DNA of 7,418 nucleotides from a virus. Its lineage: Duplodnaviria > Heunggongvirae > Uroviricota > Caudoviricetes. Each line of letters starts with the position of its first letter. The stretch's first letter is position 1. The position numbers were made by a program, and so were the translations under genes. The notes under the pieces are model-generated. The model was not told the DNA's origin and ran no database searches. It was given only the letters and a program-made list of their open reading frames with translations. Location: the IMG/VR virus record IMGVR_UViG_2531839131_000010; one strand, written 5' to 3'. Of the stretch, positions 1-7,418 are shown one piece after another.

Positions 1-3000
1 GTAATTATCATCTGCGCGGGCGCATTCTGCAGGTGCCGTCGAACTATAACCCGCAGACGCGGCAATACAGCGGTATCTGGGACGGAACGTTTAAGCCAGC
101 ATACAGCAACAACATGGCCTGGTGTCTGTGGGATATGCTGACCCATCCGCGCTACGGCATGGGGAAACGTCTTGGTGCGGCGGATGTGGACAAATGGGCG
201 CTGTATGTCATCGGCCAGTACTGCGACCAGTCAGTACCGGACGGCTTTGGCGGCACGGAGCCGCGCATCACCTGTAATGCGTATCTGACCACACAGCGCA
301 AGGCGTGGGATGTGCTCAGTGATTTCTGCTCGGCGATGCGCTGTATGCCGGTATGGAACGGGCAGACGCTGACGTTCGTGCAGGACCGACCCTCGGATAA
401 GGTGTGGACCTATAACCGCAGTAATGTGGTGATGCCGGATGATGGCGCGCCGTTCCGCTACAGCTTCAGCGCCCTGAAAGACCGCCATAATGCCGTTGAG
501 GTGAACTGGATTGACCCGAACAACGGCTGGGAGACGGCGACAGAGCTTGTTGAAGATACGCAGGCCATTGCCCGTTACGGTCGTAACGTCACGAAGATGG
601 ATGCCTTTGGCTGTACCAGCCGGGGGCAGGCGCACCGCGCCGGGCTGTGGCTGATTAAAACAGAACTGCTGGAAACGCAGACCGTGGACTTCAGCGTGGG
701 CGCAGAAGGGCTTCGCCATGTACCGGGTGATGTTATTGAAATCTGCGATGATGACTATGCCGGTATCAGCACCGGTGGGCGCGTGCTGGCGGTGAACAGC
801 CGGACCCGGACGCTGACGCTCGACCGTGAAATCACGCTGCCATCCTCCGGTACCACGCTGATAAGTCTGGTTGACGGAAGTGGTAATCCGGTCAGCGTGG
901 AGGTTCAGTCCGTCACCGACGGACTTAAGGTGAAAGTGAACCGGGTTCCTGATGGCGTTGCAGAATACAGTGTGTGGGGGCTGAAGTTGCCGACGTTGCG
1001 TCAGCGCCTGTTCCGCTGTGTGAGTATCCGTGAGAACGATGACGGCACGTATGCCATCACTGCCGTGCAGCATGTACCGGAAAAAGAAGCCATCGTGGAT
1101 AACGGGGCGCACTTTGACGGCGACCAGAGCAGCACGGTGAATGGTGTCACGCCGCCAGCGGTGCAGCACCTGACCGCCGAAGTCACCGCAGACAGCGGGG
1201 AATATCAGGTGCTGGCGCGCTGGGACACGCCGAAGGTGGTGAAGGGCGTGAGCTTCCTGCTCCGTCTGACCGTAACAGCGGATGACGGCAGTGAGCGGCT
1301 GGTCAGCACGGCCCGGACGACGGAAACCACATACCGCTTCACGCAACTGGCGCTGGGGAACTACAGGCTGACAGTCCGGGCGGTAAATGCGTGGGGACAG
1401 CAGGGCGATCCTGCCACCACCACCTTCCGGATTAACGCACCTGCAAAACCCGCCACCATTGAGCTGACGCCGGGGTATTTTCAGATAACGGCGGTCCCGC
1501 GTCTTGCGGTGTATGACCCGACGGTACAGTTTGAATTCTGGTTCTCAGAAAAACGCATCACGAACACAGCACAGGTGGAAAAATCTGCCCGTTATCTGGG
1601 GACAGGCAGTCAGTGGACTGTCCAGGGGAGCCGGATTAAGCCGGGGACGGATTTCTGGTTTTACGTGCGAAGCGTCAACCTGGTGGGAAAATCTGCTTTT
1701 GTGGAAGCCAGCGGGCAGCCCAGCAATGATGGTGAAGGGTATCTGGAAATTTTCCGGGGGCTGATAGATGAGACGCTTCTTGGTCAGGCACTGAAAGAGC
1801 GCATTGATGCTTCAGCGCTGCGTACGGAGGTCACGCAACTGGAAGAAGACATCCGTCAGCGGATGGACACGGATATCGCAGAAGTGACCCGGAAAATCGG
1901 GAAGGCGGAAAACACTCTCACGCAGCTGGTTGCGAAAAAGAATGAGGACCAGGCACTGGCCATCGCGCAGGTGAACCAGAAAGTGGACCGGGTGAGCAGT
2001 GAAATCTCACAGACTGTCAGCCAGGGGCAGTCAGAAAACGCCCGACAGATAGCACAGGTCCGCCAGTACGTGGATAAAAAAGGGAGTGAAATTACCTCGA
2101 CCACGGATAAAAAGCTGGGTGACCAGGCCGTGACCATACAGCAAATCCAGCGGGTTCAGTCAGACACGCGCAATGAGCTGAATGCCATGTATATGCTGAA
2201 GGTGCAGAAAACAAAAAACGGTATTCCCTATGTGGCTGGGATTGGCGCGGGGATTGAGGATGTTGATGGTCAGACGCTGAGCAGTATTCTGCTGCAGGCT
2301 GACCGTATCGCGATGATTACCCCGGAGAACGGCAACACCACGCCGCTGTTTGTGGCGCAGGGGAATCAGCTGTTCATGAACGACGTGTTCCTGAAGCGAC
2401 TGTTTGCGGTGAGCATCACGTCATCCGGTAATCCTCCGGCATTTTCCCTGACACCGGACGGGCGGCTGACGGCGAGAAATGCTGATATCAGCGGTAACGT
2501 TAATGCGAATTCTGGGACGCTCAACAACGTCACGATTAATCAGAACTGCCGGATCCTTGGAAAACTGTCAGCCAGCCATATTGAAGGCGATATTGTCAAA
2601 ACGGTGGGTAAGGCTTTCCCGCGAAATGGAAGTTATGCCAGTGGCACGATAACCGTCACGGTTTATGATGATCAGGGATTCGACCGGCAGATTATCATTC
2701 CGCCGGTATTATTTCGTGGTACGAAACACCAGAATTTCAACAGTCATAACCAACAGTCATACTGGTATTCAACCTGTAAGCTGCAGGTACTGAAGAACGG
2801 ACAGGAAATCTTTCAGCAACCCGCGACGGATGTCAGCAGGGTATTTTCATCCGTCATTGATATGCCTGCCGGACACGGCCATGTCACCCTGACTTTCAAT
2901 GTTTCTTCATATGGTGCTAATAACTGGACGCCAACGACCAGTATCAGCGACCTTCTTGTTATTGTGATGAAGAAATCTACAGCCGGTATCAGTATCAGTT

Positions 3001-3002
3001 GA
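1..3002 (+). CDS. J: Tail tip / central tail fibre host-specificity protein, lambda J family (5'-truncated by the window edge; reading frame enters at nt 3)
   Basis: The frame is open from nt 3 to the TGA at 3000-3002; the GTG at 33 in the ORF track is internal, not the true start. The translation ([76 protein letters not shown]...) matches my recollection of phage lambda gpJ almost residue for residue over the first ~560 codons, including the fibronectin-III-like segment ([21 protein letters not shown]...[17 protein letters not shown]). A second conserved block (YVAGIG...[18 protein letters not shown]...[37 protein letters not shown]) follows a divergent coiled-coil segment, and the C-terminal ~150 residues diverge from lambda J. 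Confidence 0.95.
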
Positions 3003-3069: not shown

Positions 3070-3669
3070 ATGCGTAAATTATGTGCTGTTATTCTGTCCG
3101 CAGTAGTCTGGCTGGTTGCCGCTGGTACGCCAGCGAGCGCAGCAGAACATCAGTCCACGCTGAGCGCGGGGTATCTTCATGCCCGTACGAACGCTCCCGG
3201 TAGTGATGATCTGAACGGGATTAACGTGAAATACCGTTATGAGTTTACGGACATGCTGGGTGTTGTGACGTCATTCAGTTATGCCAATGCCAAAGATGAG
3301 CAAAAAACGCATTACAGCGATACCCGCTGGCATGAGGATTCCGTGCGTAACCGCGGGTTCAGTGTGATGGCGGGGCCGTCTGTTCGCGTGAATGAATGGT
3401 TCAGCGCGTATGCGATGGCGGGTATGGCTTACAGCCGTGTGTCGACTTTCTCCGGGGATTATATCCGCGTAACTGACAACAAGGGGAAAACGCACGATGT
3501 GCTGACCGGAAGTGATGACGGTCGCCACAGCAACACGTCTCTGGCGTGGGGAGCTGGCGTGCAGTTTAACCCGACCGAATCCGTGGCCATTGATATTGCT
3601 TATGAAGTCTCCGGCAGTGGCGACTGGCGCACTGACGGTTTCATCGTGGGTGTCGGTTATAAGTTCTGA
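3070..3669 (+). CDS. lom: Lom/Ail-family outer-membrane beta-barrel protein (prophage-encoded, virulence-associated)
   Basis: 199-codon ORF with a GAGAGG Shine-Dalgarno 5 nt upstream of the ATG. N-terminal signal peptide MRKLCAVILSAVVWLVAAGTPASAAE. The C-terminus ...SGSGDWRTDGFIVGVGYKF matches lambda Lom as I recall it, with internal Lom-like blocks (GINVKYRYEFTD, SVMAGP, SAYAMAG) and a terminal aromatic residue typical of outer-membrane beta-barrels. Same position as lom in lambda, between J and stf. Confidence 0.93.
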   Translation: MRKLCAVILSAVVWLVAAGTPASAAEHQSTLSAGYLHARTNAPGSDDLNGINVKYRYEFTDMLGVVTSFSYANAKDEQKTHYSDTRWHEDSVRNRGFSVMAGPSVRVNEWFSAYAMAGMAYSRVSTFSGDYIRVTDNKGKTHDVLTGSDDGRHSNTSLAWGAGVQFNPTESVAIDIAYEVSGSGDWRTDGFIVGVGYKF

Positions 3670-3700
3670 TTAGCCAGGTAACACAGTGTTATGACAGCAT

Positions 3701-3726
3701 GCCTGTTCAATCAGGCGGGCTTTTTT
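3701..3726 (+). terminator. Possible weak rho-independent terminator after lom
   Basis: Short hairpin GCCTG (3701-3705), loop TTCAAT, CAGGC (3712-3716), then GGGC and TTTTTT (3721-3726). The stem is only 5 bp and separated from the T-tract by 4 nt, so this is tentative. Confidence 0.3.
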
Positions 3727-3737
3727 GTGGGGTGAAT

Positions 3738-6700
3738 ATGGCAGTAAAGATTTCAGGTGTACTGAAAGATGGGGCGGGTAAACCTGTCGTAAATTGTGCG
3801 ATTGAACTGCGGGCCAGAAGAACCAGCCCGACCGTTGTGGCGCACGTTGTCGCCACTTGTGTGACGGACAATAACGGTGCTTATGTGATTGAGGCTGAGC
3901 CGGGGTATTACGAGGTTGCGCTTCACCGTAACGGCTGGCAGCCAACCCGTGTCGGGGATATTTATGTGGCACCGACTGATGCACCGGGGACACTGAATGC
4001 GTTTCTGGATGCACCAAAGGATAGTGATTTACGTCCGGAGGTGATGAAGCGCTTTGAGGAAATGGTGGATGCGGTTGCCCGGCAGTCGGAGCAGGTCACC
4101 AATGATCGTGAAAGGGCAGAGGCGGTAGCGGAGGCAGCAACAAACGCAGCGAACTCTGCTCTTGACAGTAAAAATAAGGCAGAAGATCTAAAAAATAAGG
4201 CACAGCAAAATGCCGAAGCCGCTGCAGAAAGCGAACGACAGGCCGGGCAACATGTCGCTGATGCGCAGAAGATTAAGGGTGATTGCCAGACGCTGGCGGA
4301 TAACGTACAGCAGAATGCAGAATCCGTTGCCGAAGATAAAAAGCAGGTGGCACAGCTGGCATCATCTGCCACACAGGATGCGGCCCGCGCAGAGCAGGCT
4401 GTCAAGGATGCTGACTCGATAGTCCGGAAAGCGGTCGATAAACTCGGTGAAGCTGCAACGCTGACCGGCGAGGCAAAAGCCAGCGCCGAAGCGGCAGCAA
4501 AAAGCGAACAGAACGCGAAACAGCACAGGGACGAGGCGCAACGGATAGTTGATGACCTGAAGGGAAGCAATGCTTCCACGACAGAAAAAGGCCTGGTGCA
4601 ACTCTGTAGTGATACGGACAACGACAGCGAAGAACTGGCAGCCACACCGAAGGCCGTCAAAACCGTCATGGACGAGACGAAAACAAAAGCGCCGCTGGAC
4701 AGCCCGGCATTCACCGGCACGCCCACCACACCAACCCCACCGGACGATGCTGCCGGTCTGGAAACAGCGAACGCGGCATTTGTCCGCAAACTGCTCGCTG
4801 CACTGGTTGACTCGTCACCGGAAGCCCTGGACACGCTGAACGAGCTGGCAGCGGCGCTGGGAAATGACCCGAATTTTGCGACGACAGTCACCAAAGCACT
4901 GGCAGGTAAACAGCCACTCAGTGACGTGTTAACCGCAATCAGTAATCTGGAAGAACGGGCAGATAATCTTCTGTGCTTTAATCAGGACGGAAATGCTTCA
5001 CTGTCTCCACTGTCAGAAAAAGCCCGGTCACTGCTGGCACAGGCCACAGTGGAAGCTATGCGCAATGAGCTTGAGCTGAAAAGCGCAGCGGTAATGGATA
5101 TTCAGACAGACATTCACGACAGCACGAAAGGCCGCATTGCGCTTCCCGGTGCGTATGGTTACGGAATGACGGACGCCGGAGCGCGTTCAATTATTGCCAG
5201 CGATATGGCGACTGTAGCCAGAACCGCTCACAACCTGCACCCGGGACGCTATTACACCTTTGCCACACGAACGGAAGAAACAACCGGGATAACAGAAATT
5301 ATCTGGCTGGATAATGGCCGGGCCGACAAAACCAGCCAGACAGCAACAAAGCTGGTTCTGTTTTTTGGAAAAGACGGACGGATTCTTATGACCGTTCGTG
5401 GCGATAATATCTCCGCCCCGGTCACCTGGACGAATCTGACGCCACAACTTGGCAATGCAGCACAGAAGGATGCGCAGGAGAATATTTACGACCGCACCGA
5501 AGGCCGTCTGGCGATTCCCGGCATGTTTGGATTCGGGAAAGTATTTTTCATCGGCGACAGGACCGAGTTTAAAACAGAGGCCGATTTTCTCCGCTGGGTA
5601 AAAACGGCAAATCCCGGACGCTATGCCGTTTATGCAGATACAAATGCGGTAATACAGGGCGTGCTGTTCAAGGGTACCGTTGAAATTATCTGGCCGGAAC
5701 CTCAAATCAGCCATGATACGGCATATGTGGCCAAAATCATTATTTTTTACGGTATTAACGGTCATATTTATTACAATCGCTACTGGACTACCGGAGGTGG
5801 TTATCTGGTTGGCTGGGAAAACCTGAAGGTTGATGAGGCTTCACTCCGGGCACTGATTGAAACCCGCGCGCCACTGAACAGTCCGGCACTGACCGGAACG
5901 CCGTCCACGCCAACACCACCGGATGATGCAGCAGGTAATGAAATAGCCAATGCGGCGTTTGTCCGCAAACTGCTCGCCGCACTGGTTGGCTCATCACCGG
6001 AAGCCCTGGACACGCTGAACGAGCTGGCAGCGGCACTGGGCAATGACCCGAACTTTGCGACAACCGTCACTAATGCACTGGCAGGTAAACAGCCGCTTAA
6101 CGATATGTTAACGGCTATCAGCAAGGCAGGGGTGGGACAAAACTCTCTCCTTTATTTTGGTGATAACTTTAAAGCAAAAGCAATTCCATGCAGCAACAAG
6201 GCTCGCTCATTACTGGCACGAAACACGCCTGAAGCCATGCGCACGGAGCTTGAACTGAAAGCGGCTGCGACGATGGAACCCCAGAGCGATATCCGCGACC
6301 GCACACCGGGCAGACTGGCACTGTCCGGCATGCATGGATTCGGTCAGGCATTCACCAGTGCCGACGCTCTGACATTTAACGGGCAGGCCGATTTTGTTGA
6401 ATGGCTGAAAAAGGCCGCCCCGGGGCGTTATGCGGTCAGTATTGCGGACTCTTCCATGCTGCTGGTTGGCACCAAGAAATTTAACGGCACCATTGATGTG
6501 ATGTGGTCGCCCTTTGATAACGATGAGTCAGACACAATACGTAAATTCAAAACGCTGCTGTGTTTTAACCAGTATTACGAAGGTGAGCACAGTATTCATC
6601 GCCTGACTTACCGCTGGAGTGGAAACAACTGGAATGCAACAGTAAGCCCTGTCATTTACGACGGCGATTCGCTGGCGTTCTTACTGTCCCGGACAGCAGG

Positions 6701-6998
6701 CTCAGGCTCATATTTCAAATACCCGGCAGTGGGTGTTCCAGTGCTGGCTGTTTATCGCGGAACAACTTTCGGGGATAAAGAAATCAATATTGGCCTGGGT
6801 GATGTGGTGCAGGGGTCACAACTGGGCGGAGTTAATCTTTCGTGCTTAATATCTTCTCCTGGGGTTGGCTCCTACAATTCCGCACCGAGTGCAGGAGCTA
6901 CAGGGTACACTTTCCCGGGGCGTTATATGGCGCTATCCGGGGTCAGGGACTCTAAAGGAATAACCGGTCGTATCTGCCTGTTTGTGCGCATCGAGTAA
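3738..6998 (+). CDS. stf: Side tail fibre protein (lambda Stf family N-terminus; long mosaic fibre with duplicated collar segments and repeated distal domains)
   Basis: Open frame from 3699 to the TAA at 6996-6998. I place the start at the ATG at 3738 because the product then begins MAVKISGVLKDGAGKPV..., matching the lambda Stf N-terminus (MAVKISGVLKDG...) as I recall it, and a G-rich SD-like element (GGGGTG) lies just upstream. The ATG at 3699 sits inside the putative lom terminator hairpin. An Ala/Glu/Lys/Gln-rich coiled-coil shaft follows, then the conserved phage tail fibre segment SPA(F/L)TGTP(T/S)TPTPPDDAAG...ANAAFV...LDTLNELAAALGNDPNFATTVT.ALAGKQP, present twice. Confidence 0.9.
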   Translation: MAVKISGVLKDGAGKPVVNCAIELRARRTSPTVVAHVVATCVTDNNGAYVIEAEPGYYEVALHRNGWQPTRVGDIYVAPTDAPGTLNAFLDAPKDSDLRPEVMKRFEEMVDAVARQSEQVTNDRERAEAVAEAATNAANSALDSKNKAEDLKNKAQQNAEAAAESERQAGQHVADAQKIKGDCQTLADNVQQNAESVAEDKKQVAQLASSATQDAARAEQAVKDADSIVRKAVDKLGEAATLTGEAKASAEAAAKSEQNAKQHRDEAQRIVDDLKGSNASTTEKGLVQLCSDTDNDSEELAATPKAVKTVMDETKTKAPLDSPAFTGTPTTPTPPDDAAGLETANAAFVRKLLAALVDSSPEALDTLNELAAALGNDPNFATTVTKALAGKQPLSDVLTAISNLEERADNLLCFNQDGNASLSPLSEKARSLLAQATVEAMRNELELKSAAVMDIQTDIHDSTKGRIALPGAYGYGMTDAGARSIIASDMATVARTAHNLHPGRYYTFATRTEETTGITEIIWLDNGRADKTSQTATKLVLFFGKDGRILMTVRGDNISAPVTWTNLTPQLGNAAQKDAQENIYDRTEGRLAIPGMFGFGKVFFIGDRTEFKTEADFLRWVKTANPGRYAVYADTNAVIQGVLFKGTVEIIWPEPQISHDTAYVAKIIIFYGINGHIYYNRYWTTGGGYLVGWENLKVDEASLRALIETRAPLNSPALTGTPSTPTPPDDAAGNEIANAAFVRKLLAALVGSSPEALDTLNELAAALGNDPNFATTVTNALAGKQPLNDMLTAISKAGVGQNSLLYFGDNFKAKAIPCSNKARSLLARNTPEAMRTELELKAAATMEPQSDIRDRTPGRLALSGMHGFGQAFTSADALTFNGQADFVEWLKKAAPGRYAVSIADSSMLLVGTKKFNGTIDVMWSPFDNDESDTIRKFKTLLCFNQYYEGEHSIHRLTYRWSGNNWNATVSPVIYDGDSLAFLLSRTAGSGSYFKYPAVGVPVLAVYRGTTFGDKEINIGLGDVVQGSQLGGVNLSCLISSPGVGSYNSAPSAGATGYTFPGRYMALSGVRDSKGITGRICLFVRIE
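4686..4943 (+). repeat. Intragenic direct repeat, copy A (86-codon tail fibre collar segment inside stf)
   Basis: Encodes KAPLDSPAFTGTPTTPTPPDDAAGLETANAAFVRKLLAALVDSSPEALDTLNELAAALGNDPNFATTVTKALAGKQPLSDVLTAIS. It recurs 1179 nt downstream with about 10 amino-acid differences out of 86 by my count, and near-identical nucleotide runs such as ccggaagccctggacacgctgaacgagctggcagcgg. Confidence 0.9.
5865..6122 (+). repeat. Intragenic direct repeat, copy B (86-codon tail fibre collar segment inside stf)
   Basis: Encodes RAPLNSPALTGTPSTPTPPDDAAGNEIANAAFVRKLLAALVGSSPEALDTLNELAAALGNDPNFATTVTNALAGKQPLNDMLTAIS. Same frame and orientation as copy A, offset exactly 1179 nt (393 codons). Confidence 0.9.
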
Positions 6999-7011: not shown

Positions 7012-7418
7012 ATGAAAATCAGAGCGGTAAAGGGCATCAGAAACGCCCATTATCTTGAAAATGGTGCGGTTGACTGCGAGGTGTTATTTGAAGGTGAAAC
7101 GGAATTCGTCCCGTATACCGCCATGCAGGATGATACCGCACCGACAGGCCAGCGCATCTGGGAAGAGTTGCAGAACGGCAAATGGGGCGAAATCGCCCCT
7201 TTCACTGTCACGCCGGAACTTATCGCCGCGGCGAAGGATGCCAAAAAGCAGGAAATCGAGGCATGGCGCACAGAACAGGAAGCACTGCCGTTCACCTTTG
7301 AATGGAACGGTCGCACCTGGAACGCTGGCCCCGACTCAATGGCCCGTCTTTATCCGGTAGTAATGGCGGCGAAATCCGATACGGCACGAACCGCCCTTGC
7401 ATGGGGTGATGCCGATAA
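7012..7418 (+). CDS. Putative tail fibre assembly / chaperone-like protein (3'-truncated by the window edge); function inferred mainly from position
   Basis: ATG at 7012 is preceded by GGGGAA (7000-7005) with a 6-nt spacer and lies only 13 nt after the stf stop, suggesting translational coupling. The frame stays open to the window end (MKIRAVKGIRNAHYLENGAVDCEVLFEGETEFVPYTAMQDD...FEWNGRTWNAGPDSMARLYPVV...). It is absent from the ORF track only because no stop falls inside the window. It occupies the tfa slot of the lambda J-lom-stf-tfa order. The sequence does not resemble lambda Tfa at the N-terminus, so the family assignment is uncertain. Confidence 0.5.
   Translation, partial: MKIRAVKGIRNAHYLENGAVDCEVLFEGETEFVPYTAMQDDTAPTGQRIWEELQNGKWGEIAPFTVTPELIAAAKDAKKQEIEAWRTEQEALPFTFEWNGRTWNAGPDSMARLYPVVMAAKSDTARTALAWGDAD

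Follow-up and report, generated by a model that had tools for sequence, protein, structure and literature searches.

A doubled collar segment in the side tail fibre gene of an Escherichia coli lambdoid prophage is very probably an old in-frame duplication with the collar core as recombination joint

The subject of this analysis is stf, the side tail fibre gene carried by a 7,418-nucleotide (nt) stretch of DNA from a tailed virus of the Caudoviricetes (IMG/VR record IMGVR_UViG_2531839131_000010). We call the whole stretch the window, and all positions are counted from its first letter. The list of open reading frames (ORFs) together with the Pfam matches gives the gene order J-lom-stf-DUF4376-type, which is that of the distal tail region of a lambda-like prophage. 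An earlier reading made from the letters of the window (the sequence-only reading) had noticed that a collar segment occurs twice within stf. The fibre consists, in order, of an N-terminal docking domain, a presumed coiled coil, a Phage_fiber_2 repeat, a first module made of collar A, linker A and the knob-like domains D1a and D1b, and a second module made of collar B, linker B, the knob-like domain D2 and the tip. The elements of the gene are as follows.

3738-6998, + strand: stf, side tail fibre gene, 1086 amino acids (aa) from the ATG at 3738; the ORF is open from the ATG at 3699 (1099 codons)
3738-4130, + strand: N-terminal tail-attachment domain (phage_tail_N; PF08400, E = 2.7e-42, aa 14-144 of the 1099-aa ORF; PDB 9e7m)
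4131-4574, + strand: Ala/Glu/Gln-rich region by sequence composition, presumed to form a coiled-coil shaft; its length differs among alleles
4575-4694, + strand: Phage_fiber_2 repeat, …ATPKAVKTVMDETKTKAP (PF03406, E = 7e-16, aa 293-332)
4686-4943, + strand: collar copy A, 86 codons (repeat analysis and A-type diagnostic residues)
4815-4855, partner 5994-6034, + strand: 41-bp identity tract, inferred crossover zone (the short allele of prophage L011, described below, switches type just 3' of it)
4944-5072, + strand: linker A, a predicted helical segment, 54% identical to linker B
5073-5444, + strand: knob-like domain 1a (D1a) and neck, aa 459-582, a paralogue of D1b and D2; entropy 0.17 bits, nearly invariant in long alleles
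5445-5846, + strand: knob-like domain 1b (D1b) and neck, aa 583-716, variable in long alleles
5865-6122, + strand: collar copy B, 86 codons (repeat analysis and B-type diagnostic residues)
6123-6251, + strand: linker B, the most variable segment in long alleles
6252-6668, + strand: knob-like domain 2 (D2) and neck, aa 852-990, 46% identical to D1b
6669-6995, + strand: C-terminal tip without a Pfam family; the last ~80 aa are hypervariable, with an entropy peak in the last ~90 residues

Repeat finding returned a 257-nt direct repeat (4689-4945 against 5868-6124, 85% identity, spacing 1179), and all other direct repeats in the window are of 25 nt or less. When the two 86-codon copies were aligned, 76 of the 86 residues were identical (88.4%) and 42 of the 258 nt differed (83.7% nucleotide identity), bearing out the ~88% protein identity that had been estimated by eye. 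The copies are offset by 1179 nt, or 393 codons, and lie in one reading frame of a single ORF (3699-6998), separated by 307 codons that encode a linker and two knobs. Their codon differences comprise 26 synonymous and 10 non-synonymous ones. The longest perfect tract that they share is 41 bp (4815-4855, identical to 5994-6034); it is flanked by a 20-bp perfect tract on either side and sits in ~150 bp at 90-97% identity. At synonymous sites, the collar core has diverged about half as much as the collar flanks, as expected if the core is a recombination joint. The sequence-only reading had confined the homology to the 86 codons. However, BLASTP of the two protein halves extends it to aa 328-554 against aa 721-956 (55% identity, E = 7e-66, well outside chance), and module 1 itself contains two paralogous domains (aa 459-562 against 583-690, 33% identity, E = 9e-16) which are represented by a single copy in module 2.

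Natural alleles about 393 codons shorter, which the sequence-only reading had suggested looking for, were found, and they have exactly the geometry that it had predicted for in-register recombination leaving an intact, shorter fibre. A sister lambdoid prophage (L011; gene order I-J-lom-stf-DUF4376), 90-94.5% identical along the window, carries a stf of 707 aa that lacks exactly window 4919-6097 (1179 nt). In its single collar, 33 consecutive diagnostic sites run A-type, then B-type, with one switch, and this crossover position is immediately 3' of the 41-bp core. In the myovirus-type prophage of E. coli SC418 (L001), stf encodes 654 aa, exactly 392 codons fewer than the 1046-aa allele at the same prophage position in L002, and its single collar is likewise A-type in the 5' part and B-type in the 3' part with the switch at the identity core. 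The same polarity is seen in the single-collar proteins examined: 22 of 22 are A-type at the 5' diagnostic positions, and 15-19 of 22 are B-type at each 3' diagnostic position. There are also intermediate forms of 777-924 aa with one collar and two knobs, and in alleles such as L005 and P0130 knobs of the 1a/1b type stand immediately before the tip.

To place the two-collar form among its relatives, we used a search of 5.8 billion proteins, which returned thousands of relatives, and retrieved 144 homologues for the counts. Two collars are present in 122 of the 144, in proteins of 1030-1090 aa from E. coli, E. marmotae and Salmonella. Two-collar loci are also found on complete chromosomes, namely in a W-like strain deposited as DH5alpha (L002) and in strain A36 (L003), and the BLAST matches to the window include E. 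coli W chromosomes. In 111 two-collar homologues, the A and B collars form distinct conserved types. The A-type residues D2, F6, L22, T/M24, E60, I65, M66 and S76 are common to most or all of these proteins, and the B-type residues are N/K2, L6, N/T22, I24, N60, V65, T66 and N76. Since the two types stay separate in 111 proteins and the copies have accumulated 26 synonymous differences, the duplication is old and conserved, and the footprint of a recent insertion that the sequence-only reading had offered as one explanation does not fit. Judged from these sequences, the pattern shows that the duplication predates the diversification of the alleles and has been kept under purifying selection. 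In a megablast census of 5,426 complete E. coli genomes, the full module 1 occurs in 32, and a single-collar junction into linker-B-like sequence occurs in at most 71, an upper bound because the linker partly cross-matches. The fibre family of collar, knob and tip is found on two kinds of tail, either after lambda-type J-lom genes (the window and L011) or in a myovirus-type setting (L001-L003 and L005-L009) where the fibre gene lies 3' of myovirus baseplate J/gp47 genes and of a tfa gene. The N-terminal domains of the lambda-like and the myovirus-type proteins are only ~48-50% identical, and the myovirus-type coil is 42 aa shorter.

The two modules differ in what they contain. Module 1 comprises a linker and two knob-like domains and has no counterpart of the ~110-140-aa C-terminal tip, and the hypervariable tip is present in module 2 only. 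Because the tip is missing, module 1 is best described, as far as its sequence tells, as a shaft extension of two knob-like domains and not as a full second distal module, so that the two successive distal modules of the sequence-only reading reduce to one. In a set of 119 long alleles, the variability lies mainly in three segments, namely knob 1b (entropy 0.76 bits), linker B (0.91 bits) and the distal tip (0.77 bits), and the variable stretches correspond to window 5562-5828, 6123-6251 and 6759-6995. Knob 1a, both collars and the Phage_fiber_2 repeat are nearly invariant in the same set. The PHROG 2636 tail fibre family matches the window protein in four stretches that cover the whole profile (E = 1e-283). 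The profile has 568 positions and represents the short form with one unit; the repeated matches of the window protein are to its distal part.

What the D domains look like can be said with less firmness. In a Pfam search at E ≤ 10, the isolated linker, D1a, D1b, D2 and tip gave nothing meaningful. The monomeric AlphaFold2 model of D1b is confident for residues 40-126 (predicted local distance difference test, pLDDT, 80-91), with one helix and five or six strands. The order of secondary-structure elements is the same in the D2 model; the model of D2 with the tip is poor (mean pLDDT 60, from a 12-sequence alignment), and a Foldseek search with it against the PDB gave no match at E < 0.01. The BFVD matches come from phages Goslar and Av-05 and are proteins with tail fibre repeats (39-42% identity). 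From these weak lines of fold evidence, we infer that the D domains may adopt a knob fold. The presumed receptor-binding end of the fibre is the C-terminal tip. A PGRY motif, the mark of each knob-like domain, is present once more close to the C-terminal end of the tip (window 6900-6960, …GYTFPGRYMALSG…). The tip may hold a fourth, strongly diverged knob-like copy, although a hidden Markov model of the D domains picked up no fourth copy there.

We consider it very probable that an in-frame segmental duplication or insertion arose long ago in the modular stf of an E. coli lambdoid prophage and has been stably inherited, with the collar core serving as the recombination joint. According to this model, a unit of collar, linker and knob-like domain would have come to be present twice, the first time with two knobs, giving two collars, three knob-like domains and a single variable tip. 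The nearly invariant collar core (…AAFVRKLLAALV.SSPEALDTLNELAAALGNDP…) would act as the joint for homologous recombination, and a crossover between copy A and copy B would remove exactly 393 codons and yield the natural short form. In the course of evolution, the core would have allowed alleles with one, two or three knobs and different tips to interconvert, and such alleles would have been shuffled between lambda-like and myovirus-type prophages. The long form would most likely lengthen the fibre and give it two additional knobs, and the variable knob 1b may, by analogy, provide a second, proximal sugar-binding site besides the tip. We favor the collar core as the joint because the geometry of L011 and L001, the A-5'/B-3' types of the single-collar proteins, the intermediate forms and the low synonymous divergence of the core all fit it, as does the recombination of ~12%-diverged stf DNA by lambda Red (PMC3945230). 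Several considerations weigh against it. A deletion from the long form and an insertion into the short form give the same picture in these data. The A-5'/B-3' pattern could come in part from co-adaptation of each collar half with its flank instead of crossover history, and the lower synonymous divergence of the core could reflect codon or nucleotide constraint. Lastly, the longer fibre with a second binding site is a suggestion from sequence for every member of the family.

Repeats classically cause assembly errors, and the source assembly of the window is a further ground for suspecting that the collar was duplicated by assembly or sequencing, a possibility that the sequence-only reading had itself raised. 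We rejected this explanation and give it practically no credence, since the copies have diverged at 42 of 258 nt and each lies in unique flanking sequence, the ORF is intact, and the same architecture recurs in many independent records, including the complete chromosomes of E. coli W and A36. The sequence-only reading had also proposed a built-in route to host-range variation, in which recombination between copies A and B would delete module 1 so often that each lysate contains a subpopulation with a short fibre and another host range. The copies are indeed direct, in frame and in register, the 41-bp perfect core lies within ~150 bp at 90-97% identity, phage Rad52-like recombinases act on stf DNA diverged by ~12% (PMC3945230), and the deletion product is viable in nature. 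However, perfect homology is limited to 41 bp in DNA that is 84% identical, and a synthetic 693-aa query with the sequence between the A and B copies deleted found no short allele of at least 95% identity among its 120 best matches from the 5.8-billion-protein search. The closest short alleles in that set are 82-86% identical overall to the window allele, and the closest module 2 among short alleles, in P0129 (tip 98%, D2 92%), is joined to a different coil. The L011 event, whether deletion or insertion, must be old, given the 5.5-10% divergence between the L011 flanks and the window. Frequent exchange would also homogenise or delete the copies, yet the A and B types are distinct in more than 100 alleles. 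Lambda Red recombines stf DNA with the ~12%-diverged Rac sequence at ~2e-6, the 12% divergence costing ~100-fold relative to identical DNA (PMC3945230). By analogy, the frequency here would be ~1e-6 or lower, so that deletion within the gene should be a possible but rare event, comparable to ordinary mutation and not to a switch. For these reasons, active switching is quite improbable. We attach similarly little probability to a related reading, in which the diverged collar pair is kept as a low-frequency toggle of length and specificity, the phage's own Rad52-type recombinase producing short-fibre variants, and triple-unit variants by unequal exchange, during lytic replication so that every burst contains mixed fibres. 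If true, such a toggle would be a recombination-based form of bet-hedging for host range, distinct from invertase and diversity-generating retroelement (DGR) systems. The collar copies are direct and not inverted, unlike Cin/Gin/Min, shufflon and DGR sites; the window contains no inverted crossover sites and no template/variable repeat pair, its inverted repeats being only 20-23 nt long, 74-85% complementary and scattered.

A further explanation concerns function and not history. Module 1 might be a complete second receptor-binding module, so that the fibre has two equivalent distal modules and recognizes two receptors. Among alleles, knob 1b varies as much as the distal tip, and alleles such as L005 and P0130 place knobs of the 1a/1b type directly before a tip. 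Saccharide-binding fibres have knob-like domains, and the variable Knob2 of R-pyocins has been proposed as a binding site (PMC6116203). Nevertheless, module 1 contains nothing that corresponds to the ~110-140-aa tip, knob 1a is almost invariant, and binding is deduced from sequence with weak evidence for the fold, so we regard dual specificity as rather unlikely.

The collar is widespread. The collar core was matched at 751 places in 689 phage records, among them those of lambda, P1/P7, P2-like, Klebsiella, Pseudomonas and 372 Mycobacterium phages, and since places outnumber records, some phage records have more than one collar copy. The collar also matches many PHROG tail-fibre families. These matches agree with the statement in the sequence-only reading that the segment is the conserved linker common to phage tail fibre genes. 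In sampled minor tail proteins of hundreds of Mycobacterium and Gordonia phages, the core (SSPEALDTLNELAAALGNDPNFATT) is 58-76% identical.

The repetition of the collar motif within one gene is already documented, because gene S of P1/P7, like the window stf, has two in-frame direct collar copies in one ORF, annotated in GenBank as repeated elements b1 and b2 of the constant part Sc. Identity to the window collars is 48-67% for P1 S aa 255-329 and 329-411, and copy B of the window shares 85-87% nucleotide identity with b2 of P1/P7 Sc. The arrangement differs, however: the P1 copies are immediately tandem (2 x 74 codons), whereas the window copies, at an offset of 393 codons, enclose a module with two knobs. 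In P1, the distal module is chosen by downstream Cin-mediated inversion, while in the window recombination between the copies would change the content of the fibre itself. Lambda Stf resembles the window stf in its J-lom-stf position, its PF08400 N-terminal domain, its Phage_fiber_2 repeat and one collar, for which the sampled lambda imm434 record gives a single match (62% identity over the collar). We take lambda Stf to have a gp37-like tip and a Tfa chaperone. The window allele differs in its two collars, three knob-like domains, uncharacterised tip and downstream gene of DUF4376 type. StfR of the E. coli K-12 Rac prophage (1120 aa), which is similar to the window stf in length, family name, phage_tail_N and Phage_fiber_2, was considered as a precedent for the doubled architecture and rejected, as it has a different distal architecture without collar, knob or tip homology.

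The paradigm of mosaic tail fibres is said to go back to Haggård-Ljungquist in 1992 and Sandmeier in 1992 and 1994. Experiments have shown that phages and prophages exchange stf segments by homologous recombination (De Paepe 2014, PMC3945230). Buth et al. (2018, PMC6116203) count the structures 5m9f and 5efv, T4 gp34 and the pyocin fibre among the knob-like domains found in saccharide-binding fibres. R-type pyocin fibres (PA0620) are similar to the window fibre in that rod segments alternate with repeated knob-like domains that arose by duplication, and their diversity lies in Knob2 and the C-terminal lectin domain (PMC6116203). Both fibres therefore show variability in one knob and in the C-terminal domain, that is, in two separated regions.

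The neighbouring genes are given here with their evidence.

33-3002, + strand: tail tip protein J, C-terminal ~990 codons, with the 5' end outside the window (Pfam Phage-tail_3, Ig_J, Ig_J_second, Phage_Tail_Tip and Ig_GpJ_C)
3070-3669, + strand: lom, Ail/Lom outer-membrane protein gene (PF06316, E = 2.7e-123, full length)
7012-7418, + strand: 5' part of the DUF4376-type gene, which begins at the ATG at 7012 and runs off the window (PF14301, E = 1e-6; phrog_1141, E = 1e-63)

The J gene of the window aligns with that of L011 from L011 position 1256. From end to end, the stf protein shares 98% identity with a 1086-aa E. coli protein (P0001), which makes E. coli the source. Residues 1-92 of the stf protein match the tail fibre protein chain of PDB 9e7m (94 residues, E = 4e-21). 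Because the homologues and the 9e7m chain begin with MAVKISG, the true start is probably the ATG at 3738, and the first 13 codons of the ORF that opens at 3699 are probably untranslated. Many NCBI records name this tail fibre protein a shikimate transporter, an evident propagated misannotation. Within the coil, a pair of 25-nt direct repeats lies at 4212-4236 and 4485-4509, 273 nt apart, encoding AEAAAESE and AEAAAKSE. An antisense ORF of 310 aa (3962-4894, - strand) runs across the Ala-rich coil region and is most likely a by-product of GCN-rich coding and not a gene. The first 136 codons (407 nt) of the DUF4376-type gene are inside the window. Its product is presumed, from its position and family, to be a fibre assembly or accessory protein; neither Pfam nor PHROG gave a match to Caudo_TAP (PF02413, the Tfa-type chaperone) in the part within the window. 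A DUF4376-type gene lies 3' of every examined stf homologue of this fibre family, in lambda-like and myovirus-type prophages alike. In L011, the region 3' of the DUF4376 gene (L011 7934-8960) contains short ORF fragments with a weak resolvase match (a 40-aa fragment) and Caudo_TAP matches, which may be remnants of an invertible tail-fibre cassette.

Taken as a whole, the stf of the window is an instance of the known modular and mosaic evolution of tail fibres with repeated motifs and involves no new mechanism. It provides an example, at the level of coordinates, of how a tail fibre changes in length and domain content, with the joint at a 41-bp core in a shared collar motif, and the natural long and short alleles document both states in one prophage backbone. 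For the family, the analysis identifies an uncharacterised knob-like domain of ~125 aa and a tip without a Pfam family that are common in prophages of E. coli and Salmonella and are found in the virulent phages Goslar and Av-05 as well. As a fusion point for chimeric side tail fibres, for example those of lambda-based delivery particles (PMC11338833), the collar core has been validated by nature, and the series of one-, two- and three-knob alleles is a natural test set for the effect of fibre length and extra knobs on adsorption.

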